A stretch of DNA of 51,182 bases, counting the filler, from Jimgerdemannia flammicorona (Eukaryota): the NCBI GenBank assembly GCA_003990765.1. It is 2 parts of 2 records of this genome, joined end to end, with 100 filler letters (N's around TTAATTAATTAA, not from the genome) between each part and the next. Parts side by side here need not be neighbours in the genome. Positions count along the whole stretch, not along the records: positions 1 to 25,545 come from RBNJ01000820.1; 1 more part is not named here. The stretch is one strand, 5' to 3'. Numbering within the stretch: position 1 is the stretch's first letter; each line of letters opens with the position of its first letter. The notes beneath the pieces are model-generated. The model saw only the letters and a list, made by a program, of their open reading frames with translations, was not told where the DNA came from and searched no databases. Below are positions 10,700 to 47,489 of the stretch, one piece after another. The position numbers and the translations under genes were made by a program.

Positions 10700-11980
10700 T
10701 AAATATAAAATATTAGTTATATTTATTTAAATATTTCTCAGTTTACTTAAATCTCAGTATTATTTTTGAAAGGTCTATATTTTTGAAGCTATTAAGAAGA
10801 CTTTTTATAATTTTAATACTACTAAATATATAAACTTTAATATTAATAACTTAAGATATTTTATTAATTATTACTATATTATGTATAATAATTTAAGAAT
10901 ATTTCTAATTATATATATATATCTCTTTAATATAAAAATAAAATCAGTTACAAACAATATAATAAAAAATATAAAATAAATCTTATATATAAATATAATT
11001 ACTTACTATCCTTTAAAACTAATTTTTTTTTTGAGTTTATTAAATATTTTATTATATTTAAATTATTATATATTTAATAATAAAAATATTAATTAGATAA
11101 AATATTCAAATAAATTAAATTTGATTCAAATTGAATTAATATATATAAATACAAAGTTTTCAAGTCTTTTAAATTATTAATTATAGTAAAAAATTATAAT
11201 ATTTAGATAATTTATATAAAGATAATTAAAAAATAAGTTATAATTAATATTACAAAGTCTTATTAATCAAAGACTAATTAGTCTATTAAATTAGATAGAC
11301 TACTCTAAATATAATTAATAAAGTTTATCAAATTGAATAAATCTTAAGTTATTTCTAAATTAGATCTATCTTAAAAGATTTAGTTAATTACTATCAGAAC
11401 TTGGATATAACTCATATCTTATATATATATTATTAAATTATGTATTATTACTTATAAATATTAAAAACTATTTATTAATACTAGTAGCTATATTTTTTAT
11501 TTCTTTATTACTATTAGTAAAATAGCTAATACTCTCTCTTATAAAAAAATTAGAAAAATTTATAATAAATATATATATTTGTAATATTCTACTTTTAAAC
11601 TACTGAGAGTAGATATTATAAATACTATAACTTAAATAGAATAAAAGATATATTTAATAATATTAACTTTAATAATAAAAATACTAAAAATAATAATCTT
11701 TTTAATAATAAGATTATTAAGAAAATAAAATTAATTTATATTTAAAAATTATATAATATCTTTAACTATTTAAGTTTATATTATTGATATTTATTTTAAA
11801 TAATTATATTTTCTATTTTATCAGAAAAATAAAATTTAGTTTATATTTTCTAGTTTATATCTAGAGCTATTTATATTTATTGTAATAGTTGATCTTAATT
11901 AAGATTAATAATTAAAATATAAATATTTAATTATAATATCTAAATATGATTTTTAATATAGTATAGAATGATATAAAGTT
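10700..11980. other. Extremely AT-rich decayed repeat DNA
   Basis: Nearly G/C-free, TpA-rich, with no ORFs. Confidence 0.6.
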
Positions 11981-13010
11981 GAGCAATCACTTGATCTCAT
12001 AGTTATATAATTTATATAACTATATAGATTTTACAAATATATAGATATCTTAACTATATAGATTTTACAAATGTTTAGATCTCACAACTATATAAATTAA
12101 CTAATAAAAAAAGAAGTCTTAGCTTAGCTACTATATATATAGCTAGTAAAGTTATATAAATATCTCTAGTATCTAGAGTAAATAAATCTTAGATTGAAAT
12201 AGTTCAAGTAAAAAGATAAGAAACTAGTAAGTCTGTAGGTAGATATACTTCAAACTCACCTATTCCTATATCTGAGGACTCCAAGAGTTAAAGAAGAGTA
12301 AGTATTTAAAATAATAAAATCTACTGTACTTTTATCTATATATCTACCATATTATAACTTAGTACTTATTGATTTATAATTTAAGACAAATATCTTATTT
12401 TTAAGCTAAATACTAAAAACTGCTACTATCTGAACATACACTTAAACTAAATTAAGATATTTAGATAAGATAGATAAGAGATTACTAGTATATATCTTCA
12501 ATAAATTAATCATTATCTTCTTTAATAATTTTAAGTAATATACTACTATAAGAACTCAATCAGTATAATAATAAGTAGCTTTAATAGTATTCAGTCTCTG
12601 AGAACTAATAAGAGCTATATTTATAACTGTAAATTATACTAAAAATAATAATACTATAATACTGATATGTAGCTTAGAAGATCTGGTTATAAGTTATCTA
12701 CTATATAAATAAAATTAAACAGGTTTTGAAGAATTATTTCAATAATATTTATCAAGAAATAAATAAAGACTCAAATACTCCCTATTCCTGAATCTGTTAT
12801 TAGATAATCTTAGTCAATTATACTAATATCTTTAGAGATTAAGTAGCTGAAGTAATCTAATTAATACAAATAGTCCTGAACTTAGTATAAAAGATAACTT
12901 ATGCTCACTCTCAAGTCTATATAATAGAGAGAGTCACTAGAGTCAGAATTAAAATATTTAAGATAATAAGTATAATTTCTATAACTATAATCAATTGAAA
13001 CACACCTCAA

Positions 13011-17212: not shown

Positions 17213-18212
17213 ATCAGATTGAGAATAAAAACTTTGGAAAACTACTCTACTTTCAACTAGCCTAGAGATGACAATTCCCAAGGAATATATTAGTATACTT
17301 AAGATAAAAAGTAGTCTAACCAAGTATGAAATTTTGATTGAAGAAAGTATTATTGATTATGATTATATTAGAGAATTCATACTTATTGCCAGAAATTATA
17401 ATTTTACAATTTTATTTATAGTTAAAAAGAAAGACTGACTTATATAAATATTGATCTTTCTAGTACTACAACCTAAGATTTTAGAGATCAAGAAGCTGAA
17501 GAAAATTGAAAGAAGGAAAGAATCTAGATCTATAGGGAGAGAAGATTTCATCAACATCAAGATTACTAAATTAGACTATAAAAAGGAGGAAAATATAGAT
17601 AAGTATAGCTATACTATCAAAAATGAATTTCTATTCAAAAAGGATCTTAAGTAGCTACTGCACAAATTTGAGGATATTCTTGCTATAAATTTTAAGAAAA
17701 TAAAAAAAAAAATACTATACTACTATTATAATATAGATATATAAAACACTAAGCCAATCTATCAAAGATCATAACTAATCTCATAAGTATATTGTAAATA
17801 ACTCAGAGAGAAAATCAAGTAGAGAGAAGAAGCTGATATCAAAAAGAAGATCGTTAGTCCTTAGTTCTGATCAATAATACTAGTTCTGAAGAAAGAAAAC
17901 AAGTTAAGAGAATTTTCCCCAAGGCTCTATATAGACTATAGAAAGCTTAATAAAGTTATCAAGAAGGATTGCCAATTACTGTCCCTTATTAGTGATATCC
18001 TGATTATACTAGGAGATAAAGTAAAATACTACCCTACCATTAGGATTCTATCAAATTAACCTCACTAAGAAAACCAGCCTTTATTACTACTGATAAAACT
18101 TATATCTATCTATAAATACTATTCAGAATATGTAATATCTCAGCAAGTTTCCAGAGAATGAAGAACAAGATCTTCTGAGAAGATATGGAAAAATGAATAA
18201 TAGTCTATATAG

Positions 18213-19989
18213 TGTAATGGTGACTCCAGAATGATGATATCAGCACAGGAGACAGTCTTTCCTTGCAAGCCACCAGATCGAAGCACAAGAAGATCATACA
18301 GCATACAAGATGAGCAATAATGACCAACTGTGAGTCATTGTGACCATAGTATAAGTATCCTGAGGAATATAAAAGAAGGATCAAGGAACTACAGTAATAG
18401 CAACCAACAAGACCCACCAATCCCAAAATAGCTCAAAGACTTACTATAAATGAAATGTCTACTGCTCACTAAACCTCAAGATCAAGGAACCACCAAGGTA
18501 TCTCAGTTGAAGAAAGGATGTTCCAAGACATCAGAAGAGCTATGAGGACCTGCTCAAAAAGGACTCCTAGTGTCAACCTGGGTACTGGTGACTCTTGTCA
18601 TTATATTCTCTACTGCTGTGAAATAGAAACAAGGATCACCATTGCTACTGAATGCCTCCAAATATGGCAGGAGTATGAAATAGGAAACCTCCTCTACCAG
18701 GAGTTCCCACAGACCAGCACTCAAGAGCTACAAGATGCTACTCTCATAGATATATGTGAAATAAGGATAGCTAAGAAGATCCATCAGATCTTCAGACATA
18801 TACCATAGTCAATCCCCAACTTAGAGTATGTTAGAGTCTCAGATTTCAGAGATCTGTCATTCTGCCATATCAATGCACTAGAAGCCAGGGTGGCTACAGA
18901 AGCCCAGTCCACTATTACCCTCAATAGTGATGAAGTAAAAGACTTCTGGCATCCTATCTTTCAGGACAACCCAGACCAATTCCTGCAAGGATTGATCTCA
19001 GTATTCCAAGGTCCAAGCATCTAGGTTAGATTTCCCCAAGACCCCACATTTGTTCCCTATTTTGTAGAAGAGAACCTCATAGATTTGAGAGCCCCCGATT
19101 TCTCCATTGAATATAATAACATCATTGGTGATGACATCATCCTATATGATATATGCAAGATGCATGATGAAGCATGCAAAGTACATGAAACATGCAACCT
19201 ATATGATGATGACAATGACAAATTTGCAAACCTCATCTCCTTTGAAGACATTCTGATCTCTGATGATGAAGCCCCCATGGTCCTGAACATTCTGCTCTAA
19301 GTCTCTTGGTTATACTGAATAATACCAGTACTGGCATTCTGATGTAATACTGAATAATGCCAGCACCAGCATTCTGATGTGACACTGAATTATACCAGCA
19401 TCCTGAACCTATATAACCATTAGTACTGACTCTGGAACTTAGCAGTTTTTCCTATCCTAGCATTTTATTTTAGTTATTAGAATTTATATATAGCTTTATA
19501 TCTTAGCAACTATTGAATTACATTTTATATAAATATCTCTCTTATTTCCTCTGAAATAAAGTCAGTTCCAGTTCACTTATACACAATCCCTTACAAGCAA
19601 TCTAAGAGATAACAAGACAGTTTAAAGATAAGAAGTTTGAGGACTATAAGACCTTGGGAAGGCACTCCAATAAGAACTTGCTTATAACAAACTTATAGTT
19701 AGTTGAAGAGATATACCTTGAAGAGAATCTGATATATTTAAAGAACTCAATGTCTACTATATGACAATGTATATAATATAGTTCCCTCAGTTCTGGTTCA
19801 CTTATACACAATCCCTTGCAAGCAATCTAAGAGTTAATAAGACAGTTAAAGATAAGAAGTTTGAGGACTATAAGACCTTAGGAAGGCACTCCAATAAGAA
19901 CTTGCTTATAATAAACTTGAGTTAGTCTAAGAGATATACCTTGAAGAGAATCTGGTATATTTGAAGGACTCAGTGACCACTACATGACA
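18213..19989 (+). repeat. 5' LTR of copy A (~1.78 kb, TG...CA)
   Basis: Starts TGTAATGGTGACTCC and ends CTACATGACA. Homologous to 40487-42242 and 31969-34487. Contains three ~35-bp repeats (~19310-19403), TATAAATA (~19528), AATAAA (~19555) and a duplicated ~220-bp terminal unit. Confidence 0.9.
18320..19300 (+). pseudogene. LTR (U3)-internal ORF3b, ~326 codons, function unknown
   Basis: One frame from ATG 18320 to TAA 19300 joins ORF-track fragments 18518-18808 and 19085-19300. It is broken only by transition-type stops, several of which are sense codons in the other LTR copies. Confidence 0.75.
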
Positions 19990-19992
19990 ACT

Positions 19993-20007
19993 TGGTACTC
20001 ATTGGTT
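19993..20007 (+). promoter_or_regulatory. Putative primer-binding site
   Basis: TGGTACTCATTGG lies 3 nt after the LTR end; copy B reads TAGTGCCAATTGG. The TGG start would pair with tRNA CCA. The tRNA identity cannot be resolved. Confidence 0.55.
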
Positions 20008-20018
20008 GGTAATTCAAG

Positions 20019-23000
20019 ATGAATCCCTCACTTTCAAGCTAAAAAATGAACAACTCCCACAATAACTATCCTGACTACAAAAGTCACCCCTATAAGAATT
20101 CAAGACAAGATAGAAATAGGTTCCCCAACATTCTATAGATATACTACTGAAGAGTCAATTCTGACCTTCATTGAAGACTTTGAACAATTCACTGCCATAT
20201 GAGCCCTTGGCATGAATGCACAATTGGCCCTCTATCAGTCAGCCTCAGAGGATCTGCCAGAGACAAGTTCAATGCAGCCACTATTGCTGATAATGGTGTA
20301 GCCAAACTTGCCAACATGAAGGCCTTTCTCAGAACAATATACTATACTGAAGAGATCAAGCAAGCTCTCAAGGATCAACTCAATACTATCTGTCAGAGAC
20401 TTAGTGAAGATCCCAACTCATTCTATATCTGAATCTGCCACCAGATTGTCTTGGCTAGCTATAATGACTGCCTTAAAGAACAAATAGTAGATTCAACCTT
20501 CCTCAAAGGAGTTCACTCTGAAATTGCCCTAGCAATCCAGTCTACCCTAGCTGCACTGACCCTTGATCAGAAAGTGGTCTTTGCACAGAGATATTGGACT
20601 ACCAGACACCCTGCTGAATACTCAATAGAGAAAATAACTGACATCAAGATGGAGCCATTGAAGCTAACCAGTATTATACCTACTACAGTTATAAATAGAC
20701 AACCATCCCTACCTATCCACAAGGTAGCCAAAACTGACTCAGTGGAAGAACTTGCCAAGCAGTTTACTGAGATGACTGCACACCTTAGTGATGTTGTTAG
20801 AGAAGTCTGAAATGCCAACAGGAGACCAGTGCAGAGATTTGCAGCTGCTACAGAAGAATGCAATATCACATGCTTCAGATGTGGAGAAGAAGGCCACTAT
20901 GTAAAGAATTGCATAACTGAAACAAGATGCAAAGCCCAACTAAGCAATACTAGCAGAACTAGAGAACAAAACAATGCAGTAGTCATTGAGGAGATTGGTG
21001 ATACTGATGATGAAGAATACTATGAGGAGCTTGAATTCTACCCTGCTACTAAAGGTACCAGAACCTGGTCTAAGCCCTATGACAAAAAGAGCAACAGCAA
21101 GCCAGTTGGAAGATCAAAGAAGACCTAAGCAGTCACTATTCAAAGCAAGACTCAACCTAAGGAGATTGATCAAGACATGAAGTTAGATGAAGCTGTCTGC
21201 CAAATCATTGAAGACACTACTCCAGTCTTAGGAGAATATGAAAGCAAGAAGGAACAGAAGCTGTATAAGACCAAGATCCACCAGTATGATATCTATAAGG
21301 ACCTCAAGGAATAGAAGGTCAATGCTACTTTTGGACAGCTAGCTGAAGTCCCTGCCTTCAGACAGCAGTTGAGAGTAGGACTTGCAACTACCACCAAGAA
21401 TCAAGAGTACAAGATTGTAGAAGCTCACAATGCACAGGAAGAATTTGACAACTTAGGTGAAGAATCCAAAGACCAGCACAAGATATCAGCCTATACTCCA
21501 TGTCAAATTGAAGACTATATCTTTGATGCCATCATTGATACTGGTGCTGGAGGATACCTCATAAGAAGACAATTGACTGCCTAGGTTGAGATATTGAAGA
21601 GTCCACCAAGATGGTCTATATTATAGCAGATGGTACATGAGCCACCCTCCTTAGCAAAATCTGAGAAGTCTCCATTAAGATAGGAGGAGCTACCATCCCA
21701 GTAGATATGATTGTTATAAGCACCACTAACTATAACATCCTCATTGACAACCAATGGCTTTACAAGACCAAGGCCATTATTGACCTCAATTCCCAGAAGA
21801 TGCAGATCAACTATAGAGGAAGAAAGGTATAAGTCTCTATCAATGTCCACAAAGAAGTCTTACTCAACATGGAGAAAGGAGATGAAGAGGATACAGAAGT
21901 CTTCATGCACTTAGTGAATAAGAACAAGAACAAGACACCCAAGCTCATAGATGAGCAGTGGTATAATAAGATCATCAATGGCTATACCCCTTAAGAAAGA
22001 TGCCCTCATAGTACTAGGATATACTGCTCTGAACACCTGAATGACTGCTGGTCCTATATCAGTGAAGTCAGGAAAATCCACCAACAGAAACATAAGCAAG
22101 AAGCTGCTGAAGCAAAAAGGAAAGCCGAAGAAGATGACCAGCCCCCAGAGCTTCAGGCTGACAGTGATGATGAAGAGGAATAAGAATCAGACATTACTCT
22201 CAAGGTCAAGAAGTTCCACCCTGAAGCCAAGATCCCAGAATATAAGACTGAAGGAGCCATAGGAATGGACCTTGCTAGCATTCAAGATGCTACCCTCAAA
22301 CCACAGACCACTACTCTATTTGGCACTGGAATAAGAGTCAAGTTACCAGAAAACCATACTGGAATTATCAAGACCAGGAGCAGTCTGGCCAAAAGTGAAA
22401 TCTCAGTTGAAGGAGGAGTAATTGACTCTGATTACACTGGTGAGATCTTCCTCATAGTCAGAAATTACAACCCCACCACTCCATTTGAAGTCAAGAAGCA
22501 TGATAGGATTGGTCAGATACTGATCCATGAAATCAAGAAACCCAAGATCATTGAAGTCATCAAACTCATCAAGACTAAGAGAGGAGAACAAGGCTTTGGA
22601 TTCACTGGAAGAGAAGCCTATGCTGCCATCAAGATTACCAAACTTGAATACAAGAAAGATAAGGATCAGAATAAGCACACATACACTATTGGAGAAAACT
22701 TTCCCCTGGAAGAACAACTTCTCAAGATCCTGCATCAGAATGAAGAAGTACTTGCTACAGACTTCAGGGATATCTATAATCAAGAACCCAAGTACTACCA
22801 TAAAGTTGATACTGGTGATACCAAGCCCATCTATCAGAAAGCCAGACCTATACCACCTGCCTACAGAGAATGGCTGTGAGCAGAACTCAAGGAAATGGAA
22901 GAAGCTGGAATTATTAAGCAAGCTATCAGTCCCTGGGCTTCACCCATTGTCCTCACCCTAAAGAAAGAAAGTAAGCCTGGAGAGTTTGTACCAAGACTCT

Positions 23001-25376
23001 GTATTGCTACAGAAAGCTCAATGCCATCACCAAGAAGAATAGGCAGCCCTTACCAAATATTCAAGAAATCCTTACCATCCTTGGAAGTAAAGCCAAATAC
23101 TACACTACTCTGGATCTGTTCTCTGGCTTTCATCAGATTGATCTCACTCAAGATACCAGTGAGAAATCAGCTTTCATCACATCTGACACTACCTATATCT
23201 ACCTGTGAATGTCATTTGGAATGTGCAATGCCCCAGTAAGTTTACAGTAAATGATGAATAGAGTTTTCAGCAATAAGATTGGAAAATAGCTCTTTGTCTA
23301 TATTGATGATGTGATCATCTTCAGCAATACTATATAATATGTCAATTACATACAGCTAGCTCTCATGAAGCTCAAGGAGCATGGCCTCTGCATCAAGCCC
23401 AAGAAATGCAAGTTTGCAGCTTAAGAAATTACCTATCTAGGACACCTCATCAACCAGACTGGAATCTACACAGACTCTATGAAGATTGAGGCTGTTGTAG
23501 CCTACCTGAGACCCAGAACAACCACAGAAGTCTATGCCTTCCTTGGACTGGCCAGCTACTACAGAAGATTCATCAAAGAATATTCCAACATTGCAGCACC
23601 TATCTACAAGCTACTGAAGAAGGAAACCAAATTCAAATGGACCAAGGAATGCCAAGAAACCTTCAATGAACTCAAGACCAGATTGACCTAAGCACCTATT
23701 CTCAGAAGACCAGATTGGAACCTAGAATTCATCCTGTAGACAGATGCAAGTACTATAGGACTTAGAGCAGTCCTAGCTCAGAAGAAAGATGGACATGAAT
23801 ATGGCATCTCCTATATAAGCTGAGATACCTGCAGAGCAGAACAGAACTATGAGTCATGCAAGCTTAAATACCTAATAGTAGTTTGGGCAGTAGACAAGTT
23901 CCACTACTACCTAGCCAGAGAACACTTCACTATTCAAACAGACTATTCCACTCTTGCCTGGCTATTCCACACTCTGAACTCTAAAGGAATATATACCAGA
24001 TGGATCTACAAACTGCAAGAGTATAACTGTACTGTCAAGTACTGCTTAGGAAGAACTAATACCAATGCTGATGCACTCTCAAGGATACCCCAAAACACTC
24101 CAAAACACCCCTATCAAGACTATTCAACATGAATAAGGAGTTATACTATGGATTAATCAGCTATCTTAGGCAGTAGAAGATGCCCAACCACCTCAAACCC
24201 TAGACAATCACCATCATCAACCAGACTTGGAAATAGTTTGAACTAGACAACACTATACTCAGAAAAGGAGGAAACCTAGTAATACTTGAACACAAGAAGT
24301 ATCAAGTAATAAAGGAAGTACATGAGCAAGGATATCTAGGAGGAACCAATACATACAATAAGGCAAGAAGAACTATATAGTGGCTCAAGATAGAAGAAGA
24401 CCTGCACCAATTTATCAAAGAGTGTGACAAGTGCCAAAAACAGAAACAAGATCAGTAAGACCAGGCACCCAGATCATTAAGAATTGAGCCTATCCCCTTC
24501 CACCACATTACAATGGATATCATTGAGCCACTACCAGTAACACTATCAGGAAACTGCTATATTATAGTTATTGTAGACCTCTTTACTAAATAGATAGAAG
24601 CAGGAGCATTACAAGAAGCCAATGCCCTCTCTATAGCTGACTTTCTGTACTGAGAAATCATCTGCCACTACAAGACACTGAAGCAAATTACAACAGACTA
24701 TGGCACAGAATTTGTCAATAGATTCTACAAGATAATGTATCAGAAATACAAGATCCAGCACATCAAGACCACCACATACCACCCTCAAGGAAATGGACAG
24801 ATAGAGAGAACCAAGAAGACCCTCAAGAACATCCTGACAAAGATCTCAGAGACATATGAGAATTGGGATAACTAACTCCTAACTGCCCTTTCTATCCTAT
24901 GAGATATACAATCACAGAGCACACACTTTACCCCAAGAGAACTGCTCTTCAGAGAAGAAGATTCTGATGGAACCTCAGCCACAAATCTAGATCTAACTTG
25001 GAGATGGGTTGATGCAGAAATCCAGAGACTACACCAAATCAGGAAGAAGGCTGAAGATTACATTATCAAGTCACAAGTGCTGATAAGAAATAATGCAGAA
25101 AAGAATCACAAGACCCTAGAACTCATTCAAATTGGAGAAAAGATCCTACTATATCAAAATATAGTAGAAGCCTCATAGTTGTGAAAACTGGAGCCCAAAA
25201 GAGAAGGACTCTTCTATGTACAAGATATCAAAGGAACTATCTTCTGGCATAGAAAAATCTCAGAGACTATACTGTCTACTATAGTTCATAGGAACAGACT
25301 TAAGAAGTATTATAAACCTATATAAGAGAAGCAAAATGTAATGACTGTCCATGAGGTTCTAGTCTGTAAATTATAA
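20019..25376 (+). pseudogene. gag-pol polyprotein pseudogene, copy A
   Basis: CFRCGEEGHYVKNC (CCHC), AIIDTGAGG (protease), dUTPase, SPWASPIVL and VYIDD (RT), TDAS and NTNADALSR (RNase H), integrase zinc finger and core, C-terminal VH(G)NRLKKY, stop at 25374-25376. Confidence 0.92.
22190..22615 (+). pseudogene. dUTPase domain between protease and RT (copy A)
   Basis: GMDLAS, KTRSSLA, SVEGGVIDSDYTGEI, DRIGQIL and RGEQGFG correspond to the five trimeric dUTPase motifs. Confidence 0.95.
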
Positions 25377-25380
25377 CAGT

Positions 25381-25545
25381 ATGTCCCATAACCAGCAGGC
25401 TATCTATCTGGACCATTCTCTAAGGGATATGGCACCAGCAACTACTCATCCATGAGACTTTCAAAGCCAGAGGAGTTCGAACTGTCAACTGATTGGTTAA
25501 GATCAGAATTAGGCCCTTGCTCTATATGAAGAGAGTGATCCTTCA
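25381..25545 (+). pseudogene. Start of post-integrase ORF3a (copy A), cut by the gap
   Basis: ATG 4 nt after the pol stop. Homologous to 34380-34796 of copy B. Confidence 0.45.
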
Positions 25546-25645
25546 NNNNNNNNNNNNNNNNNNNNNNNNNNNNNNNNNNNNNNNNNNNNTTAATTAATTA
25601 ANNNNNNNNNNNNNNNNNNNNNNNNNNNNNNNNNNNNNNNNNNNN
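25546..25645. other. Assembly gap with artificial TTAATTAATTAA six-frame-stop linker (25590-25601)
   Basis: A 100-nt N run with a centred palindromic linker. Confidence 0.95.
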
Positions 25646-25678
25646 AAAAAAAAGAGAAAACCATCGACTTTTGGTGAC

Positions 25679-27537
25679 ATGGCAAGTTAAGGTTTCTCTA
25701 GCTCTGAGCATTTGAAGAGAAGGAGACTAGGTCTGGGGATGCCCAAGAGCTTTGCAGCTGTTGTAGGGGCTGGTATAGCAGTAGGAGGGACTGGTGGTCA
25801 GGAGAGGACTGGTGGAGTAGAACTGTGGTTAGAGGCAGAAGGGTGGCAGTCAGACCCTTAAGGGTAGGGTAAGAGGGGTGTAGTGTTGACAGGAGGAGGG
25901 GTCAGGTGATGGGTCAGGTGATGGGTCAGGTGGCTGGAAAAGGACAGAGGTTGAGTGGTGTAATAAGGGGAACTGATTCTTTTATGGCTGGGCAGGTGGC
26001 TGGAGAGAGGACTGCTGGTGGTGTAGCTGTAGCTAGTATGATAATTACAAGTGTTTCAGGGACCAAGAGGAAGGTGACTCTAGTGGCTGGGATAGGCGAA
26101 TTGGTAGTGAGACTATTCTTTTACAAATCAGTATTAACGTGGACTGTTTCGGTAAATTTCTTGGAATTGTCAATGTCTGCTAGAGAGGTCCTGAGACTGG
26201 TAGAGGAGGAAGTGGTAGGGACAGAATCCCTGAAGTTCATCCCTTTGGCAGAGGCAGTGGAGATTGGATTTGTGGAGGAGGATGTGATGATAAAGGCACT
26301 GGAGAAAGAGATGGTGGTCAAAGGTATCAAGATTGGGATAGCAAGGTGTTTGAGGTGGAATCTGCAAGCTATTTGACTGGTGGTAGAGGGTTTGCCAACT
26401 CTAGGCAGACAGGAGACCAAGAAGATGGTGATGGAGGTGCTGAGTGGCTATGGAGAGATAGTGGACTTCAGATTCATGTTTTGGGAGGGTATCAAACTGA
26501 GGAATGGCAATTGCAAGGTGATGCTGTACCTGGAAGGCAAAGAGGCAACTGGCCTGGGAAGAGATTGGCTAGAAAGAATTCGAGTTGGAGGGCAGAAGTA
26601 CAAGGTGTAGAGGAGGAAAGGGGTGGAACAGGAGAAGAAAGAGTTGGTGATTGCTCTGGAGGAGAGGGAGGCTGCAAAGGAGTTGTGGAAGAGGAAGTGG
26701 GAGGAGTTTGCCAAGGATTGGGTCTGGATTCCAGCAGATGGCAAGCAGAAGAGGTAGAGGAAAGAGGATTGGGAACACCTGCAGGCAGCCCTTCAGGGGG
26801 CAGCAGTGGAAGAGAAGGCAAGAGTTGAGGTGGCTAAGAATCAGATGGAAGGTATGGAAGCAGTGGAGGTATCTTTCTCCCAGCTAGGTGGTGTGGAGAG
26901 CTCAGCATATACACCAGTGAGAGGAAAATGGGCAGATAAGGAAGAGATAGGTGAAGAAGGCTTTGAGGCAGAGGTCGAAGTGGTGCCAGAGAGACAGGTT
27001 GAGAACACCTGTATGACTGGGGTGGCAAATGTTCATTGGAAGTACCCTGAGGCTAGTGAGGTAGTATATTTGGAGAAGGTTGTGGAAGAGGATAAGCTGG
27101 TGGATGTGGCTTCGGATGTGTCAGTGGATAGAGAGCAATTGCAGGAGCTGAGTAGGACCCCTAGGCCATTGACCCCTGGGTCCCTGGTGATGACAGCGGA
27201 GAGTTGGTACCAGGCAGTACTTGAGGAACTTGCTGAGGAAGACATCAAGAAAGTGGATGTATTTCATAGATCTCAGGAGGCATGGGAGAGATTCCTTAAT
27301 ATTGCAATGCAGGGGCCTAAGCTGGTGATGGCAATGGTGGCAGCTCTTCTGGATGATAAAGGATATGATATTGATGAGAGCAGGATGGCGGACATCAGGA
27401 AGGTAGTAGCTGAAAGGGTGGATCTTTTCTGCAGCAGTGCGAATAGTGATCGAATCTGGAGGGCAATCTGTGAGGACCAGTGGGAGATCATTAGAGGAAA
27501 AGCAGAGAAAGTGGTGGTAGTCTCAGCTGAGCTTTAA
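25679..27537 (+). pseudogene. LINE ORF1 pseudogene
   Basis: Fragments 25906-26376, 26380-26610 and 26806-27537 share one frame and are homologous to ORF1 of LINE-b (CLRWNLQ / CLRWDPR). Confidence 0.75.
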
Positions 27538-27548
27538 ACATTTCTTTG

Positions 27549-30500
27549 ATGATGATGAACAGTTTACATATATTATCGATCAACATCAATGGATTGTAAG
27601 ATGGTGTTAAGAGGAGAAGACTGTTTTGATAGCTTAAAGTCAGAAGATATGATATTGTATTTCTTCAGGATGTTTGGGCATATGGAGAGGAGGACTATGA
27701 GATGTGGAGAAAAGAATGGTATGGCAGCACAGGTTGGAACAAGCAGGTGGGCATCCTGGTTGGTATTGGTAAAGGTGAGCTGGTGGAGATTGAGGTTTAT
27801 GGTGATAGATTGGTATGGGGAAGATTAAAGGGAGGGGCAGGGGATGGTCTAGCAGTAGGCTCAGTCTATCTCCCTATAGTTGGCAGAGAGCAAAAGCAAT
27901 GGGTTGAAGACTGGTGGGCTTGGGAAGGTCAGGAGGTGGTAGCATTGGACATTCTGAGGGGAGATTTCAATATAGTGCATGACCGAATACTTGACAGGTC
28001 AGATGGAGGGGCAGGAGTAGCAGTCTCTCCTGGACTATCTCAGTGGCTTCAGGTGGAGTGAGATATGGGCCTGGTGGATGGTGTCTGTCAGCATCAGGGA
28101 GATAAGTCAGGACCATTCACCTGGTGGCACCTAGTTGGAGACAAATTAGTCAGGACACAAATTGATTGAGTGCTAATAGCTGAGTGCTGGGGTAATGTGC
28201 TGGATGTTGCTGAGGTGCATTAGTACCCATGGTCAGATCATTGGGGAGTGGAGGTGTGTGGCAGATTCCAGGCAGTAGATGGTAGTGGTGGGTGCTGGCG
28301 TCTCAATGTGGCCTTACTCAGGAGGAAGGAGGAGAGAGATCAGTTTGTGGACATTGCATGACAGGAAGTAATGTAGTAGCAGAATGATGGGCAGCTAATA
28401 GCAGAATGGTGGGGTAAATTCAAATATTTGGCGGGAGCCTATTGGAGGGATGTTGGCAAAGTAGCTGGGAAGGAGCAGAAGGATAGAGTACAAAGGGTTG
28501 AAAAGGGACTGAGGTGGTGGCTGAAGTTAATGGAAGAGGGACACTTGTTTGGAGAGAAGTGCCGCCAGCTGGCAGTAGAGGTGGCAGAGCTACAGACTGA
28601 AATGAAGGTGGCTGAGGATAGGGCAGTAGATGGCCTACTCGCAAGATTATGGGTGAGATGGTTGGAGGAGGGTGAGAGACCAACTAAATATCTGTCTGGA
28701 ATCTTGAAGGCCAGGAGGGTGTGACACAGTTGGGCCTTGGTATTGTGTGAAGATGGAACAGAAGTCACAGGGATTGCTGAGATATTGGGAGAGGTCTCAG
28801 GTCAATGGCAGACTCTCTGGCAGAATGGAGGGGAGCATGAAGAGAATGTGGTACCTGGGGAGGATGATGGCAATTTGGTAGACACTTGGCCAGTAGCAGT
28901 GGTACCTGAGATAGGAGGAGCAGTGATGGGTGAAGTGTCTTTGGAGGAAGTTTTGGAGATATTGCAGAAGGTATAGGCTGGTTCTTCACCTGGGGAGGAT
29001 GGATTGCCCTGGGAATTCTGGAAGGAGTTCCAGGTGGAGTTTGGCAGCTGGTTGGTGGAGATGGCCAACTTTGTTCTGAAGGAGGGCAGCTGGATTGGCA
29101 ATGGTTCCTTGGGACTAGTTTCTCTCCTCTATAAGGAGAAAGGAGATTGGCGGGTGTGGTGGAATTGGCAGCCTATTATGCTGCTGAATGTGGATAGAAA
29201 GCTGGTCTCAAAGATTCTAGCAGAAAGAATGCAGCAGTATGTGGGCATGCTGGTTGGTGAAGAGCAGTGAGGTTTTGTCAAAGGAAGGCAGATCAGGGAT
29301 AGTACAGCTTGGGTACAGAATGTACCAGAAAGTTGTAGGAGCCAACAGATGGATGGTAGGATGGTCTTCCTGGATCAGGAGAAGGCCTATGACAGAGTGT
29401 AGTAGAACTACTTAGAGACTATTCTGAGGAAGGTTGGATTTGGAGCAGCAGAAGTAGAGAGATTGATGGGCTTGATACGGGGATACAGGGCAGCAGTTAT
29501 GATGAATGGATGGAGTGGCCCGGAGTTTGCTATGGGGCATGGTGTGCCACAGGGTAACCCTCTCTCTCCTCTCCTTTATATACTCTCTTTGGAGCCACTG
29601 CTGGCATGGCTGAAGGGACAACTCTCTGGATTGCAAATAGGCAGTGTAGTATGGAAACTGGGTGCATTTGCAGATGATATGGTGGTTGGGTTGGGTAGTA
29701 GGGAGGATGTGGACCTCTTGTAGGAAGGGGGTGGACAGTATGAGAGGCTAGCAGGAGTGAAACTGAATTGGGGCAAGTGTGAGACAATGGAACTTAGTAT
29801 TGGTCTGAGGGAACATGAACAATTTGGACATTTGGTGGCTACTGGAAGTGCCATTCGTTATCTTGGTATTTGGTTTTCAGTATATAGAACAGTCCTGCTG
29901 AAGGAGTGGTGGAGTGGCACAATTCAGAAGCTGGAAGGTGCATTGACTGGTTGGTCAGGGAGGAGTTTCTCCTTGATAGGCAGGATTGTGGTCTTGAACG
30001 TATATTGGCTGCCAAAGCTGTGGTATCTAGGATATTACTTGGACTTTCCTGATTGGGTAGTGCAGTGGCTGAAGAAGATTGTGGAAGGCTGGTTATGGCA
30101 TGGGAAGTGGCCACAAATTGGGTGGGATATACTGGTGATGCAGACAACTGATGGCGGTCTGGGGTTGGTGGACTTTAGGTGATGGCTGAAAGTACTTAGG
30201 AGCTGGTGGGGGTATTGATTGGCAGAGATAGGAGAAGGAGAATGGGGTAGGCTGGCAATGGACAATTGGAAGATTTGGTTCTGTCTATGTGGTGAGGTTT
30301 GAAAGGATATATGAGGTTTACTTCAGGTTGGAAATATCAGTCACCTGCGGTATAAGAGATTCTGGTGGGGCATGGTGGAGGCCTGGCTGGCCATGGGGTT
30401 GGTAGGGCTAGAATTGGCAGATGGTGAGGATCCTGAGCAGAGATGGTGGAGATTGGAGAACCTCTATATTGGTGGTCACAGTCTGAAGGAGTACTCACTG

Positions 30501-31162: not shown

Positions 31163-32874
31163 AAAGAAGGAGTTGGGTGACCAAACCTATATGTAAATAT
31201 TATATTGCTGTAGCCAGTGTGGTTAATTTCTTTGTAATTCTTGGAATAGTGTTTAGATAGTCGGAATAAAGAAGTCCAAGTGACTATAAAAAAAAAAAAA
31301 AAAAAAAAAAAAAGAGCGTCAGAACATGCAGCAAGGCTCTCCTATAGATATACACCCAACACTCACCTCATCGAATTCATCATAAGAGGGGGTCTGACCT
31401 TGAACCTTGGGTCTCATCTGAACTACCTGCTGAAAGTCACCCAGTGCCTTAGTAAAATAAGTCGTGAATTAAGTGTTTAGATTATATGATATATTAAGTA
31501 TCAAGTCTCAAATTATAATAAAAGTTTATCAGTAACTTTTATAAGATATTCTTTACTTTCTATGAGACAAAACTGAGTTTTCTCTCAGACAGAAGTCAAA
31601 CAGAGTATACTAATAGAACTCTTTTTTTTTTTTTTTATATAGTCTCTTAGACTCCTTTCTTTATTCTATCTATAATATATTACATCTAGCCCACTTCTAC
31701 CTGATCTCTCTAAGGGGTCCTCCCCCCCCCACCCCCTCTCTATTAAAGACTATTAAGTTTTTGATCATCTCTACCTACTTACTACTCTGTCTACAAATTT
31801 CTTCCACCAGCTAATAATAATATTTACTCTATAGATCTCATCCTATCTACCATCCTGTCAGCAAATTCTTCATCAATCTCTTTCATCTCAACAATCTCTC
31901 CTGCATATTTAGTCATTAGCTCTTTTCAAAAACAAAGAGCTAATATCCAGTCAGCTCTATCTATACAGTGTCACATAGTAGTTGCTGAGTCCTTCAAATA
32001 TGCTAGATTCTCTTCAAGATGTATCTCTTAGATTAACTCAAGTTTGTTATAAGCAAGTTCTTATTGGAGTATCTTCTCAAGGTCTTATAGTCCTCAAACT
32101 TCTTATCTTTAAACTGTCTTATTATCTTTTAGATTGCTTGCAAGGAAGTGTGCATATTGCACTGAGAGAAACTATATTATATACATTGTCATATAGTAGG
32201 TATTGAGTCCTTTAAATACATCAGATTCTCTTCAAGGTATATCTCTTAGACTAACTACAAGTTTGTTATAAACAAGTTCTTATTGGAGTGCCTTCCTAAG
32301 GTCTTATAGTCCTCAAACTTCTTATCTTTAAACTGTCTTATTATCTTTTAGATTGCTTACAAGGAAGTGTGTGTATTGTATTGAGAAGAACTATATTATA
32401 CACATTGTCATATAGTGGGTATTGAGTCCTTCAAATACATCAGATTCTCTTCAAGATATATCTCTTAGACTAACTACAAGTTTGTTATAAGCAAGTTCTT
32501 ATTGGAGTATCTTCTTAAGATTATATAGTCCTCAAACTTCTTATCTTTAAACTATCTTGTTATCTCTTAGATTGCTTACAAGGAATTGTATATATTGCAC
32601 TAAGAGGAACTAACTTTATTTTAGAGGAAATAAGAAGAGTATTTATACAAAATATAATTTAATAGTTGCTAAGATATAAAGCTAAATATAAATTTTAATA
32701 ATTAAAATAAAATGCCAGGACAGGAAAAACCACTAAGTTCCAGGATCGGCACTGATGGTTGTACAGGTTCAGGATACTGGTATAATTCAGTATTACATCA
32801 GAATGCTGGTACTAGCATAACTCAGTGTTATATCAGAATGCCAGTGCTGGCATAACTCAGTGTAACCAAGGAAC

Positions 32875-34380
32875 TTAGAGCAGAATATTCAAGATATAGA
32901 GACTTCATTCTCATCAGAGGTCAGGATGTCTTCAAAGGAGATGAGATCTGCAAACATCTCATCTGTCTGGTTGTCATCATTATATGTTTCACATACTTCA
33001 TGCATATCATGTGGGATGATGTCATCGCTGATGACATCATCATGTTCAGTGGCAGGGGCTCTTCAATCTATGAGGTTCTCTTCCACAAAATAGGGGACAA
33101 ATGTGGTGGGGTCTTGGGGAGGTCTAATCTGGATGCTTGGGCCTTGAAATACTGAGATCAATTCTTGTAGTGCTCTGAACAAGTCAATCCGGATGGGATT
33201 TGGATGGATTCAAATCCCATCTGGATCAACTTGGATGGGATTCGAATCCCATCTGGATGGATTCGAATCAACCATTGTTTTGATTTCCAAATTAGACAAT
33301 TAAATGTTTACATCAATACCTCGATGAATAATCATCCAAATTTGATAATATTGGTGTCATTTGAAAGCCCTTAATAAGGCCTTTCTAATGATACCAAGAA
33401 CATTAAAATCGGATTATGTGTTGCTGAGATATTAAGGAAAACGTTCCATTTGACGAAATTCCAAAATCGGCAAATTGAAGAATTTCCAAAATCGGCAATT
33501 CAGACGTTTTCCTTCATAACTCAGCAATGCATGATCCGATTTCAATGTTCTTGGTATCATTAGATAGGCCTTATTAAGGGCTTTCATATGACACTAAGAA
33601 CATCAAATTTGGATGATTATTCATCAAGTTATTGATGTAAACATTTAATTGTCTAATTTGGAAATCAAAACAATGATTGATTCGAATCCATCCTGATGGG
33701 ATTCAATCCGAATCAATCCAAATCCAATCTGGATTAAATTGACTCGTTAGGAGCACTACTTGCAGGAATTGGTCTGGGTTGTCCTGAAGGATGGGATGCC
33801 AGAAGTCTTCTACTTCATCACTATTGAGAGTGATAGTGGACTAGGCTTCTATAGCTACCCTGGTTTCTAGTGCATTGATATAGTGGGATGATAGATCTCT
33901 GAAATCTGAGACTCTAACATACTCCAAGTTGGAGATTGACTATGGTGTATGTCTGAAGATCTGATGGATCTTCTTAGCCATTCTTGCCTCACATAAATCT
34001 ATGAGAGTAACATCTTGTAGCTCATACTCCTGCCATATTTAGAGGTATTCAGTAGCAATGGTGATTCTTGTTTCCATTTTACGATAGTAGAGGATATAGT
34101 GATAAGAGTCAGCAGTACCCAGGTTGACACTAGGAGTCCTTTTTGAGCAGGTCCTCATGGCTCTTTTGATGTCTTAGAATATCCTTTTTTTGACTGAGAT
34201 ATCTTGGTAGTTCCTTGACCTTGAGGTTTGGCAAGCAGCAGGCATTTTGTTTGTGGTGAGTCTTTGAGCTATTTTGGAATTGGTGGTTCTTGTTAGTTGC
34301 TGCTACTGTAGTTCCTTGATTCTTCTTTTATATTCCTCAAGATACTCATACTATAGTCACAATGACTTATAATTGGTCAT
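32875..34380 (-). pseudogene. ORF3b copy in the 3' LTR (disrupted by the MITE and a ~50-bp deletion)
   Basis: Homologous to 18320-19300, with the same start context and the C-terminal LNILL-stop. Confidence 0.7.
33168..33758. mobile_element. 591-bp foldback MITE, termini TAGTGCTC...GAGCACTA, 4-bp TSD CTTG
   Basis: Long inverted arms (~270 bp) surround a ~60-bp centre. CTTG lies at 33164-33167 and 33759-33762. The element is absent from the paralogous LTR sites (~18985 and ~41470), where the motif occurs once. Confidence 0.92.
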
Positions 34381-34796
34381 TATTGCTCATCTCATATACC
34401 ATATGATCTTCTTGTGCTCTGATCTAGTAGCTTGTAAGGAAATACTGTCTCTTGTGCTGATATCATCATTCCAAGGTCACTATTATATCTTCCTCCTGAA
34501 TAAGGATTTTCTTGAGCATCCTTATTTATTGGTCTAATTCTGAAAAATTTACTAATCCCATAACCTCTGGCAAGGGGTTGAAAAGTGGTACTTATGGGCT
34601 GGTATCTTCTCTTTGTATTTTGATGTGATGGTGAAGGGTTGCTCCCTTCATATAGAGCAAGGGCCTGATTCTGATCTTGACTAATCAGTTGATAGTTCAA
34701 ACTCCTCTAGCTTTGAAAGTCTTACAGATGAGTAGTTGCTATTGCTGTATCCCTTAGAGAATGGTCCAGACAGATAGCCTGCTGGTCACAGGACAT
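34380..34796 (-). pseudogene. Post-integrase ORF3a (~138 codons) crossing the PPT into the 3' LTR
   Basis: ATG 4 nt after the pol stop. Includes ORF-track 34392-34700. Its stop overlaps the ORF3b start (TAATG, 34378-34382). An alternative overlapping frame also looks protein-like. Confidence 0.45.
34488..34497 (-). promoter_or_regulatory. Polypurine tract
   Basis: AGGAGGAAGA on the minus strand, immediately before the 3' LTR. Confidence 0.8.
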
Positions 34797-40486: not shown

Positions 40487-42242
40487 TGTCATGTAGTGGT
40501 CACTGAGTCCTTCAAATATACCAGATTCTCTTTAAGATATATGTATCTCTTAGACTAACTCAAGTTTATTATAAGCAAGTTCTTATTAGAGTACCTTCCC
40601 AAGGTCTTATAGTCCTCAAACTTCTTATCTTTAAACTGTCTTGTTATTTTTTAAATTGCTTGCAAGGAAGTGTGTGTATTGCACTGAGAGAAACTATATT
40701 ATATACATTATCATATAGTGGGTATTGAGTCCTTCAAATATATCAGATTCTCTTCAAGATATATCTCTTAGACTAACTACAAGTTTGTTATAAGCAAGTT
40801 CTTATTGGAGTACTTTCCCAAGGTCTTATAGTCCTCAAACTTCTTATCTTTAAACTGTCTTATTATCTCTTAGATTGCTTGTAATAAATTGTATATATTG
40901 CACTAAGAGGAACTGACTTTATTTCAAAGGAAATAAGAGAAGTATTTATACAAAATATAATTCAATGATTGCTAAGATATAAAGCTAAATATAAATTCCA
41001 ATAACTAAAATAAAATGCCAGGATAGGAAAAACTGCTAAGTTCCAGGGTTGGTACTGATGATTGTATAGGTTCAAGATACTGGTATATGTAATTCAGTAT
41101 TACATCAGAATAACGGTGCTGGCATAACTCAGTGTTACATCAGAATGCTGATGCTGGTATAACTCAGTGTAACCAAGAAACTTAGAGCAGAATATTCAAG
41201 ACCATAGGGGCTTCATCCTCATCAGAGGTCAGGATGTCTTTGAAGGAGATGAGATCTGCAAATATCTCATCTGTCTGGTTGTCATCATTGTGTATTTCGC
41301 ATACTTCATATATGTCACACAGGATGATATCATCGCCAATGACATCATCACATTCAGTAACAGGAGCTCTCCAATCTATGAGGTTCTCTTCCACAAAATA
41401 GGGGACAAATGTGGGGTCTTGGGGAGGTCTAATCTGGATGCTTGGGCCTTGGAATACTGAGATCAATCCTTATAGAAATTGGTCTAGGTTGTTCTGAAGG
41501 ATGGGATGCCAGAAGTCTTCTACTTCATCACTATTGAGGGTGATAGTAAACTGGACTTCTGTAGCTACTCTGGTTTCTAGTGCATTGATATGGCAGGATG
41601 ATAGGTCTCTGAAATCTGAGACTCTAACATACTCTAAGTTGGGGATCGACCATGATGCATGCCTGAAGATCTGATAGATCTTCTTAGCTATCCTTGCCTT
41701 GCATATATCTATAGGAGTGGTATCTTATAGCTCTTGAGGGCTGGCCTATGGGAACTCCTGGCAGAGGAGGTTTCCTATTTCATACTCCTGCTATATTTGG
41801 AGGCATTCAGTAGTAATAGTGATCCTTGTTTCCATTTTACAGCAGTAGAGGATATAGTAATAAGGGTCAGTAGTATCCAGGTTGATACTAGGAGTCCTTC
41901 TTGAGTGGGTCCTCATGGCTCTTTGATGTCTTGGAACATCCTTTCTTCAACTGAGATATCTTGGTGGTTCCTTGACCTTGAGGTTTAGTGAGCAGCAGGC
42001 ATTTTATTTATGGTAAGTCTTTGAGCTATTTTGGGATTGGTGGTTCTTGTTGATTGCTGCTACTGCAGTTCCTTGATCCTTCTTTTATTCCTCAAGATAT
42101 CCATACTGTGGTCACAATGACTCACAGTTGGTCATCATTACTTATCTCATATGCTGTATGATCTTCTTGTACTCCAATCTAGTGGCTTGTAAGAAAAGGC
42201 TGCCTTCTGTGCTGATGTCATCATTCTGGAGTCATCATTACA
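40487..42242 (-). repeat. 5' LTR of copy B (~1.76 kb)
   Basis: TG...CA termini on the minus strand, followed by a PBS-like sequence. Two terminal units (40487 and ~40709). Confidence 0.92.
41182..42135 (-). pseudogene. ORF3b copy in the 5' LTR of copy B
   Basis: Includes ORF-track 41182-41466 (ISVFQGPSIQIRPPQDPTFVPYFVEENLIDW...APMVLNILL). Confidence 0.72.
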
Positions 42243-47468: not shown

Positions 47469-47489
47469 AAGGAATAATATTGATTATCA

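Follow-up and report, generated by a model that had tools for sequence, protein, structure and literature searches.

A candidate accessory gene inside the long terminal repeats of a decayed Ty3/Gypsy element from Jimgerdemannia flammicorona

Complex retroviruses are distinguished by their accessory genes; descriptions of LTR retrotransposons are mostly limited to gag-pol, with occasional internal extra ORFs. Here, we describe a reading frame in a 51,182-nt stretch of J. flammicorona DNA (hereafter, the window), which contains two decayed Ty3/Gypsy copies (A and B) that together provide three LTRs of ~1.76 kb. The frame resembles MMTV sag in being a complete ORF of about 300 codons within the LTR, 5' of the promoter and poly(A) elements, and in both cases the position within the LTR means that there are two copies of the ORF per provirus. 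The two differ in that no sequence or fold similarity was detected (no Pfam match; best E in BFVD, 0.17) and in that the window element has no env and its host appears to be a fungus. Moreover, Sag is a type II membrane glycoprotein, whereas the window protein is highly acidic and does not have a hydrophobic segment. The foamy-virus tas (bel1) and lentiviral nef genes are also accessory genes at the 3' end that reach into the LTR, but those genes have their start in the internal region and overlap U3 only in part, whereas the ATG of the window gene (18455 in copy A) lies 241 nt into the LTR in each of the three copies. Tas, a protein of ~300 aa that has an acidic activation domain, is made from an internal promoter; this layout would match that of the window gene and its putative promoter. 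Homology to foamy-virus or lentiviral accessory genes was not found using Pfam on the relatives, the PDB profile search, or BFVD. Neither Sag nor Nef was listed by the structure searches, although this is only weak evidence. The initial annotation had called the architecture "nef/sag-like"; this holds for the layout only, as neither Nef nor Sag nor another viral accessory protein was found to be similar.

The additional ORFs (aORFs) of LTR retrotransposons (Athila/Bagy2 env-like, Grande gene23, RIRE2, Retand, and Boty) are alike in that they too are conserved, uncharacterized extra ORFs, shared by all copies of a Ty3/Gypsy family and absent from genes outside the element. According to the review passages on aORFs, these lie, in sense or antisense orientation, within the internal region and for the most part after pol and before the 3' LTR (PMC7264820), whereas the window ORF is inside the LTR itself and not in the internal region. 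That article contains 0 instances of "in the LTR," "within the LTR," or "inside the LTR" (PMC7264820). By description, the dUTPase-carrying fungal Gypsy elements (PosPlaTy3 of Postia, Phanerochaete elements, and Tmt1 of Tuber) share with the window element a dUTPase between PR and RT; this position is reported for PosPlaTy3-5, and a dUTPase is also reported for Tmt1, in passages on these elements that mention no LTR-borne ORF (PMC2864245). More generally, the titles, abstracts, and passages obtained from full-text literature searches describe no LTR retrotransposon with an ORF inside its LTR. The matches to "LTR-encoded" that could be placed by title or abstract concern MMTV and other retroviruses.

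The element and the reading frame in its LTRs

Pfam matches on read-through translations agree with the initial assignment of the family to Ty3/Gypsy. Along copy A, the matches follow the order zf-CCHC (E 2e-4), PR (RVP_2, 1.5e-3, below the curated cut-off), dUTPase (7e-28), RT (RVT_1, 4.5e-25), RNase H (RT_RNaseH_2, 4e-28), and IN (Integrase_H2C2, 4e-11; rve, 2e-9). The element thus has the PR, RT, RNase H, IN order of Ty3/Gypsy (Metaviridae) Pol and a CCHC knuckle in gag, together with direct LTRs ending in TG...CA, a target-site duplication (4 bp, CTGT, around copy B), and a polypurine tract adjoining the 3' LTR (Table 1). The TGTAATGG...ATGACA ends are found in all three LTRs, and mutation has changed the opening bases of the copy B 3' LTR to TATAATAG. 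The expected primer-binding-site position, 2 nt past the 5' LTR, reads TTGGTAC in copy A and TTAGTGCC in copy B; both carry mutations, and neither was assigned to a tRNA. A third ~206-nt unit is present in the 3' LTR of copy B. A DUF7905 match was also observed in the window; this match, the literature on dUTPase-carrying Gypsy elements, and occurrence in soil point to a probable fungal host.

Table 1. Positions of the element's features and of the LTR-borne reading frame in the window
Feature	Position	Strand	Description
5' LTR, copy A	18214..19989	+	1776 nt; TG...CA ends, TGTAATGG...ATGACA; three-way LTR alignment, self-BLAST
First 45 codons of the frame as initially proposed	18320..18454	+	Non-coding; stops kept in 3/3 copies
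TATAAAAG box	18368..18375	+	87 nt upstream of ATG; candidate promoter (inferred)
LTR-borne gene, copy A	18455..19300	+	281 codons + stop; 3 internal stops, no frameshift
35-bp tandem repeats	19312..19400	+	2.5 copies, just 3' of the ORF; Tandem Repeats Finder
TATATAAATA, then AATAAA	19526..19560	+	TATATAAATA at 19526-19535, AATAAA at 19555-19560; sequence
Two tandem units of ~206 nt	19562..19989	+	19562-19767 and 19787-19990; self-BLAST, 90.8% identity; fill the 3' part of the LTR
Internal region, copy A	19990..25545	+	Ends at assembly gap (N run 25546-25645, 100 N)
zf-CCHC, copy A	20868-20912	+	Approximate; Pfam
PR, copy A	21656-21808	+	Approximate; Pfam
dUTPase, copy A	22223-22609	+	Approximate; Pfam
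RT, copy A	22957-23445	+	Approximate; Pfam
RNase H, copy A	23638-24024	+	Approximate; Pfam
IN, copy A	24294-24785	+	Approximate; Pfam
3' LTR, copy B	31969..34487	-	LTR alignment
Gene copy, copy B 3' LTR	34245-32875	-	5 stops, 48-nt deletion, 595-nt foldback insertion (33765-33171), 1-nt deletion
Polypurine tract AGGAGGAAGA	34488..34497	-	Directly upstream of copy B 3' LTR
5' LTR, copy B	40487..42242	-	LTR alignment
Gene copy, copy B 5' LTR	42002-41182	-	5 internal stops, 1-nt deletion

One reading frame is common to the three LTRs, as had been proposed (18320-19300 on the plus strand, 42135-41182 and 34380-32875 on the minus strand). Over its 326 codons, the frame 18320-19300 contains 7 internal stops, compared with 13 to 35 in each of the remaining five frames. 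The gene itself is shorter than the 326 aa first assigned to it and does not have the proposed N terminus (MTNCESL...): the M-P-A start of the intact relatives described below corresponds to window position 18455, 45 codons further in, leaving 281 codons. Upstream of this start, all three copies have TGA as codon 8 and a further stop as codon 26, and 18320..18454 is probably promoter and 5' leader. From 18455 onward, copy A has three stops (TAA at 18470, TAG at 18806, and TAG at 19022), while ~17 are expected from base composition (Poisson P ~5e-5). The earlier statement that the ORF is wholly within the LTR and precedes the 35-bp repeats, TATA, and AATAAA was confirmed by sequence and alignment; the main TATA follows its stop (19300) by 226 nt, and the polypurine tract is upstream of the whole gene. 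The ORF lies between the 5' end of the LTR and the TATA/AATAAA elements, a position that may correspond to retroviral U3, with the U3/R boundary placed from motifs only.

Contigs from four soil-metagenome runs, presumed to be DNA, were compared with the LTR, and 194 to 1678 short contigs matched per run. At two of the three stop positions of copy A, a sense codon was found in most of the matching contigs: C (CAA) accounted for a depth of 187.7 out of 201.2 at 18470 in run X1, and G (TGG) for 353.1 out of 366 at position 18807. The absence of a frameshift in copy A agrees with the initial description. Codon 26 of the 18320 frame is still TAG by the majority letter of the contigs. Contig depth fell to near zero over 19088-19271, where the protein alignments show an indel-rich tail; we treated this drop as a mapping effect only.

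The three gene copies in the window are dead, broken by transition mutations, with intact relatives elsewhere. Neither gag-pol nor the LTR frame opened cleanly when translated with genetic code tables 6 and 4, and stops of all three types occur; the breaks reflect decay and not a change of code.

Intact relatives and selection on the reading frame

Searches of public metagenome protein sets revealed intact relatives of 271 to 342 aa. Four of the 572 word-sharing candidates scored E 2e-109 to 7e-42, and when 1.84 billion representatives were searched exhaustively with a profile, six proteins had E<=1e-3, five of these E<=1e-10. The frame is stop-free from M-P-A/P to the LNF motif in P0002, P0006, P0008, and P0015 (271-342 aa), and these four, along with P0014, start at the position of window 18455. 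All of the relatives are on short metagenome contigs and none has an NCBI or UniRef name; they form an ascertained sample of intact copies because gene callers list open frames only. The lineages share ~40 to 58% amino-acid identity and have kept the frame open, the copy A lineage and relative L001 being 58% identical in the core.

L001, a 1345-nt contig, is the sole relative with readable DNA. It has the order TATA, ORF, TATA, AATAAA and includes neither LTR end, and LTR linkage is demonstrated for the window's family only. A DNA-context scan for relatives gave one locus from 76 pattern matches in metagenomes, none from 80 in viral contigs, and none from 22 in prokaryote genomes. No fused or longer relative was found among 1919 candidates of 567 to 2000 aa. 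Like aORFs, which occur in all or most copies of a family and not in host genes, the window frame is found in 3/3 LTRs; the context of the relatives was checked for one of them only.

A comparison of copy A with L001 over 272 codons gave pS 0.714, pN 0.292, and a corrected dN/dS of 0.16, which is an approximate value because dS is saturated (pS 0.71). The pN/pS ratio for the coding frame was 0.41, while the two shifted frames gave 1.05 and 1.23, and differences in the core were distributed as 0.31, 0.21, and 0.46 over the three codon positions. This frame-specific purifying selection bears out the earlier proposal, for which a dN/dS check had been suggested, that the frame is a real protein gene. 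When the three window copies were compared with one another, the ratio was 0.41-0.53 in frame versus 0.39-1.01 in the shifted frames, and the frames were not told apart; the transition bias among these copies reaches 32:1 and drives the within-window ratios.

CpG dinucleotides are depleted in the intact L001 ORF (observed/expected, 0.08) and in the transposable elements of the window (0.01-0.11), versus 1.09 in a neighboring host gene. The mutational process is a transition-dominated, CpG-depleting decay. Classical RIP was considered and rejected, as the dinucleotide indices do not fit ((CpA+TpG)/(ApC+GpT) of 1.4-1.8, CpG observed/expected of 0.01-0.1). When mutations among the three copies were polarized by majority, a CpA preference was suggested.

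The LTR protein has no detectable relation to a known family or fold

The protein consists of an Arg-rich N terminus, a confidently modeled helical core, and a long acidic tail, with hydrophobic residues dotted through the tail. P0002 has a net charge of +8 in residues 1-60 and of -14 in residues 211-270. The structure model has a mean pLDDT of 59; its helical core comprises residues 47-160, with pLDDT of 76-92 per block of ten from residue 61. Inspection of the relatives' sequences by eye agreed with the initial annotation that there is no obvious TM segment or signal peptide, the N terminus not being hydrophobic. The Cys/His tail that it had described is, by contrast, a product of decay: the intact relatives have no conserved Cys, the Cys and His residues arose from Arg by transitions, and the extra tail residues of copy A, Cys and His among them, align to gaps in every relative.

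The protein has no detectable relation to a known protein family or fold. Pfam returned no family for the window copy at E<=0.01, and none of 14 relatives matched any retroviral family at E<=1, the best results being three single-member matches with E 0.026-0.23. The best PDB sequence by profile was an unrelated LXG protein (E 0.074). The fold check that had been proposed also gave no match: Foldseek found nothing at E<=1e-3 in PDB (best, 0.7) or in BFVD (best, 0.17), VIA-align gave no Z>=5 among 48,161 chains (best, 4.2), and in the ESM Atlas, in which the model of P0002 has a pLDDT of 0.35, the best feature score was 0.83 and the best TM 0.33. Some VIA-align rows were to helix-turn-helix DNA binders, with Z of 3-4, which is within noise. 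A relation to the element's own gag was rejected (hhalign probability, 0.6%).

From the Arg-rich N-terminal 60 residues, the helical core, and the acidic tail, we tentatively suggest that the product may be a nuclear regulator of the element, which in layout would be akin to a retroviral transactivator such as Tas of foamy viruses. This functional guess derives from composition alone, and the best structural matches do not rise above noise (Foldseek E>=0.17, VIA-align Z<=4.2).

Expression of the gene and alternative explanations

Several motifs flank the ORF. In diverged L001, too, GAATATAAAAG is found 65 nt upstream of the ATG, and both it and the ATG context are conserved between lineages with 58% core amino-acid identity. 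The TATAAAAG box has a 2-nt deletion in the copy B 5' LTR. Downstream, the arrangement of TATAAATA, ~22 nt, and AATAAA also occurs 3' of the ORF in L001. By motif, TATATAAATA and AATAAA are presumed to be the genomic-RNA promoter and a shared poly(A) signal at the U3/R boundary. None of the sequencing runs containing the stretch is recorded as RNA.

On these grounds, the most likely reading of the locus is a self-contained accessory gene in U3 that would encode a nuclear regulator. We consider this explanation, taken as a whole, reasonably probable: a selectively maintained protein-coding gene entirely inside the LTR of a Ty3/Gypsy family whose host is probably a soil fungus, with the U3 location assigned by anatomy. 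The position in the LTR, the frame and its intact relatives, and the frame-specific purifying selection are shown. That the gene may have its own promoter, judging from the conserved TATAAAAG box 65 to 87 nt upstream of the ATG and the A-rich context, is about an even call. Its own transcript would be ~1.15 kb and would end at the AATAAA of the LTR, and the 5', 3', and solo LTRs would all form complete transcription units. A further and more doubtful extension is that each LTR is an autonomous gene, with TATA, leader, an ORF of 271-342 codons, and its own poly(A) signal, such that solo LTRs too might make a trans-acting protein of new fold at a dose set by the number of LTRs in the family; such a protein could be an activator or anti-silencing factor, or else a copy-number sensor. 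To our knowledge and in the literature searched, this organization has not been described for LTR retrotransposons.

A real gene could also follow the expression route of MMTV sag and HIV nef, with a subgenomic mRNA that begins at the main 5' LTR promoter, loses gag-pol by splicing, and is read at the gene copy in U3 of the 3' LTR; complex retroviruses are known to express their U3-borne genes in this way. A possible acceptor, seen by eye in all three copies, is a stretch of pyrimidines with AAG/CAG after it at ~18258-18275. However, an intron of ~7.5 kb would be needed, whereas introns in fungi usually measure tens to a few hundred nucleotides, neither L001 nor the window has an AG separating the branch-like CTCAC/CTTAC from the ATG, and the conserved TATA is at a distance that suits an independent promoter; we consider splicing of this kind unlikely. 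Also unlikely, and slightly more so, is that the product restrains the element as a copy-number control factor, its dose rising with LTR number (solo LTRs included). Ty1 p22 illustrates that a retrotransposon can encode a self-restricting protein from an internal promoter, and an LTR-borne unit would presumably be made in proportion to LTR number. On the other hand, p22 is a gag fragment and the window protein has no similarity to gag, and sequence does not separate activation from repression.

Two explanations would deny the frame a role in the element. LTR retrotransposons are stated, in the portions of the review that bear on this, to transduce host sequences (PMC7264820), and the absence of a known TE-related domain in the protein would suit a fragment of a captured host gene that rides passively in the LTR. 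We regard this as improbable, as the frame is in all three LTRs, has been kept open in lineages at ~40-58% identity under frame-specific constraint, and has no longer or fused relative among the 1919 candidates. The CpG depletion of the L001 ORF, which is like that of the transposable elements and not of the host gene, matches long residence in methylated TE DNA. In view of the same contrast, the frame does not look like a recently captured host exon, an outcome that the initial annotation had named as refuting, and no non-TE relative was seen, the context being available for one relative only. Finally, the failure of within-window dN/dS to separate the frames would be expected if the ORF were a chance or compositional artifact of transition-mutated DNA, but the shortage of stops (3 versus ~17), the intact relatives down to E 2e-109, and the frame-specific pN/pS make this very improbable indeed.

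If the favored reading of a selectively maintained LTR gene is true, a conserved LTR-resident gene of a probably fungal Gypsy element would mean that this layout arose also outside the vertebrate retroviruses, and the protein would constitute a new orphan family in retroelement biology. Solo LTRs, usually held to be inert scars or stray promoters, could then stay protein-coding. Because LTRs are masked before gene calling, genes of this kind would be invisible in annotated genomes; every relative found here came from unmasked metagenome gene calls, which is consistent with LTR masking hiding such genes.

Two decayed copies of a Ty3/Gypsy element

Self-comparison of the window and a three-way alignment of the LTRs revealed one LTR retrotransposon present twice, as copy A and copy B. 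The 4-bp sequence CTGT is duplicated on either side of copy B, and a polypurine tract, AGGAGGAAGA, sits immediately 5' of this copy's 3' LTR; LTRs of the family start with TGTAATGG and end with ATGACA. The N run (25546-25645) stops copy A about 150 nt short of the expected start of its 3' LTR, and the truncated look of this copy is an artefact of the assembly, in which we take the run to be a gap, not biology. In read-through translation, copy A matched the Pfam domains zf-CCHC, RVP_2 (weakly), dUTPase, RVT_1, RT_RNaseH_2, Integrase_H2C2, and rve, in that order, with RT_RNaseH matching the same region as RT_RNaseH_2. These domains and their order therefore identify a Ty3/Gypsy element, as the initial annotation had it, whose dUTPase is placed between protease and RT. 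In the accessible text of PMC2864245, Gypsy elements with a dUTPase are known from Postia, Phanerochaete, and Tuber, and the protease-dUTPase-RT arrangement is described for a few fungal elements. Both copies are defunct, and no standard-code ORF in them exceeds 322 aa.

Features of the window and of the copy A LTR
Feature	Position	Strand	Remark
Copy A	18214-25545	+	ended by run of 100 N
Copy B	42242 to 31969	-	full length
dUTPase domain	22223-22609	+	copy A; Pfam E 7e-28
LTR 5' end	18214	+	copy A
TATA box of GAATATAAAAG	18368-18375	+	upstream of ATG
Leader	between upstream TATA and ATG	+	A/C-rich
ATG	18455	+	context AAAATGCC in copy B and L001
Stop codon	19298-19300	+	end of LTR gene
35-bp repeat	19312-19400	+	2.5 copies, 3' of stop
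TATATAAATA	19526-19535	+	before AATAAA
AATAAA	19555-19560	+	after TATATAAATA
Two ~206-nt units	19562-19989	+	fill rest of LTR; self-comparison
Foldback arms	33213-33473 and 33475-33735	inverted	261 nt each, 84% complementary, 1 nt apart
DUF7905-like gene pieces	~7370-8760	-	Pfam E 7e-30 and 3e-17, two frames
LINE-like (non-LTR) elements	25646-31960 and 42243-51182	+ and -	RVT_1 E 2e-22 and 7.5e-21

The LTR holds an entire conserved gene

The initial annotation had described a frame of about 326 aa at 18320-19300, common to all three LTRs. This frame has seven internal stops, versus 13-35 in the five other frames of the same stretch, and it was recognizable by alignment in both copy B LTRs. Its N-terminus, however, had been wrongly placed: codon 8 (TGA) and codon 26 are stops in all three copies, and codon 26 is still a stop by majority letter in metagenome contigs. 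Five metagenome protein relatives (P0002, P0006, P0008, P0014, and P0015) begin M-P-A or M-P-P at the equivalent of 18455. The shared upstream stops and these starts therefore define a gene of 281 codons at 18455-19300, over which copy A is free of frameshifts, as had been claimed for the longer frame. Copy A has three internal stops (18470 TAA, 18806 TAG, and 19022 TAG), versus about 17 expected by arithmetic from base composition; the copy B 5' LTR has five stops and a 1-nt deletion, and in the 3' LTR there are again five stops, along with deletions of 48 nt and 1 nt and a 595-nt insertion. We thus confirmed the LTR-borne frame as real, with its start and tail corrected.

Seeding by shared words, we searched 5.8 billion clustered proteins and obtained four relatives among 572 candidates (E 2e-109 to 7e-42, 53-74% identity), whose clusters hold more members, two 323-aa proteins included. 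When 1.84 billion representatives were searched exhaustively with a profile, only six proteins reached E<=1e-3, five of them E<=1e-10; the finds include 342-aa and 214-aa members (40-47% identity), and a last profile search added three fragments. All relatives come from short contigs (0.5-2.4 kb) of JGI or ENA metagenome sets, with no NCBI or UniRef source among them, and are named only "hypothetical protein"; longer or fused forms were not found. P0002, P0006, P0008, and P0015 cover the whole length between the M-P start and a conserved LNF motif near the end, while P0001 and P0005, which extend to the end, open at an internal Met. Because gene callers report open frames only, the set of intact relatives carries an ascertainment bias.

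One DNA locus was retrieved for the relatives, L001 (1345 nt), which encodes P0008. The dN/dS comparison that the initial annotation had proposed gave 0.16 for copy A against L001 with dS saturated (272 codons; pS 0.714, pN 0.292), and constraint was frame-specific, with pN/pS in the same alignment of 0.41 in frame versus 1.05 and 1.23 in the shifted frames. Core differences by codon position were 0.31, 0.21, and 0.46. Comparison of the window's own copies with each other was uninformative on selection. In four soil-metagenome runs, 194-1678 short contigs per run matched the LTR at 80% or above, and the differences from copy A, among those listed, were mostly A>G or T>C. The majority letter gives a sense codon at two of the three copy A stops (18470 C, 18807 G); the third (19022) is absent among the 40 differences listed (191 further) and is CAG in both copy B LTRs, in line with the earlier remark that several copy A stops are sense codons in the other copies. 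Together, the relatives, the frame-specific constraint, and the contig sense codons show that the frame is a gene kept by selection across lineages diverged to about 40-58% amino acid identity.

Predicted expression and role of the product

L001 is diverged: amino acid identity in the core is only 58%, and nucleotide identity is 63% on the upstream side and 51% on the downstream side. It nevertheless retains GAATATAAAAG 65 nt ahead of its ATG and, past its stop, carries TATAAATA, with AATAAA about 22 nt further on. The downstream pair of TATATAAATA and AATAAA is as would be expected of a U3/R boundary with a short R, and by these motifs the gene would lie within U3, as originally proposed. The reading of the architecture as a gene wholly inside the LTR, in a U3-like position, is supported. 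The ~206-nt units, the first of which closes with an LTR-terminus-like ATGACA, number two in the copy A LTR and copy B 5' and three in copy B 3' (32594-31962), so the LTRs of one element are unequal in unit number.

We consider the chances evenly balanced that the gene is transcribed from a promoter of its own at the upstream TATA box and ends its mRNA at the poly(A) signal of the LTR, in which case an mRNA of about 1.15 kb could arise from any LTR. A spliced route like that of nef or sag appears improbable: it would require a 7.5-kb intron, unusual for fungi, and from the branch-like motif up to the ATG there is no AG, in the window or in L001. An own promoter is favored because of both points and because the conserved TATA is suitably spaced from the ATG.

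The product has a basic N-terminus (13 Arg or Lys in residues 1-60 of P0002, net charge +8), a helical core (residues 47-160), and a tail of 60-110 acidic residues (net charge -14 to -27) with scattered hydrophobic motifs, e.g. DLISF and LNF. In the AlphaFold2 model, built on a 14-sequence alignment, the core scored pLDDT 76-92 in each ten-residue block from residue 61 on; the whole model has a mean of 59 and a pTM of 0.49. The helical core and acidic tail of the initial annotation thus stand, by model and composition, but not the Cys/His character of the tail, as the relatives lack a conserved Cys. By eye, the sequences contain neither a hydrophobic N-terminus nor a long hydrophobic segment, which agrees with the absence of a TM segment or signal peptide noted before. 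The three-part layout points, tentatively, to a nuclear regulator that may be transactivator-like, with a self-restraining copy-number factor as a live alternative.

The protein had been called uncharacterized, and we found no match for it in Pfam, PDB sequences, or the ESM Atlas, in Foldseek searches of PDB and BFVD, in VIA-align against 48,161 chains (best Z 4.2), or to the element's own gag. MMTV sag, foamy-virus tas, and lentiviral nef are the nearest parallels, in layout but not by homology. In the accessible text of PMC7264820, additional ORFs of LTR retrotransposons lie in the internal region, most of them between pol and the 3' LTR, and are never described as in, within, or inside the LTR. 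An LTR-borne retrotransposon ORF was likewise not found in the full-text literature as accessible, including portions of PMC10787394, PMC2864245, PMC12581995, PMC5408684, and PMC6431247; the first account of Tmt1, the dUTPase element of Tuber, could bear on novelty. In kind the gene is familiar, an LTR-retroelement accessory ORF; its position seems unreported, and its protein family is an orphan.

Decay and neighboring sequence

The copy B LTRs differ at 198 of 1698 aligned sites, by 192 transitions and 6 transversions. Transposons of the window have almost no CpG (o/e 0.01-0.11), while the neighboring DUF7905-like gene is normal (1.09), a contrast that suggests methylation-linked decay limited to repeats. 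Classical RIP does not fit (substrate index 1.4-1.8), and we therefore name the decay only transition-dominated and CpG-depleting. The two frames of the DUF7905-like pieces mean that this gene is either interrupted or intron-containing.

The 595-nt insertion (33171-33765), which breaks the LTR gene in copy B 3', is a near-perfect foldback and looks like a MITE or hairpin element. At the copy A insertion target (17900-18213), the sequence resembles, by eye, a decayed RT motif of another retroelement; if it is one, the insertions would be nested. The LINE-like elements flank copy B in opposite orientations; their strand asymmetry is very pronounced (GC skew near +0.45 and -0.45), and a run of K codons suggests an A-rich tail. 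The 10700-13000 region, which adjoins the gene-like region, is extremely AT-rich (GC 16%, TpA/ApT 1.2, no CpG).
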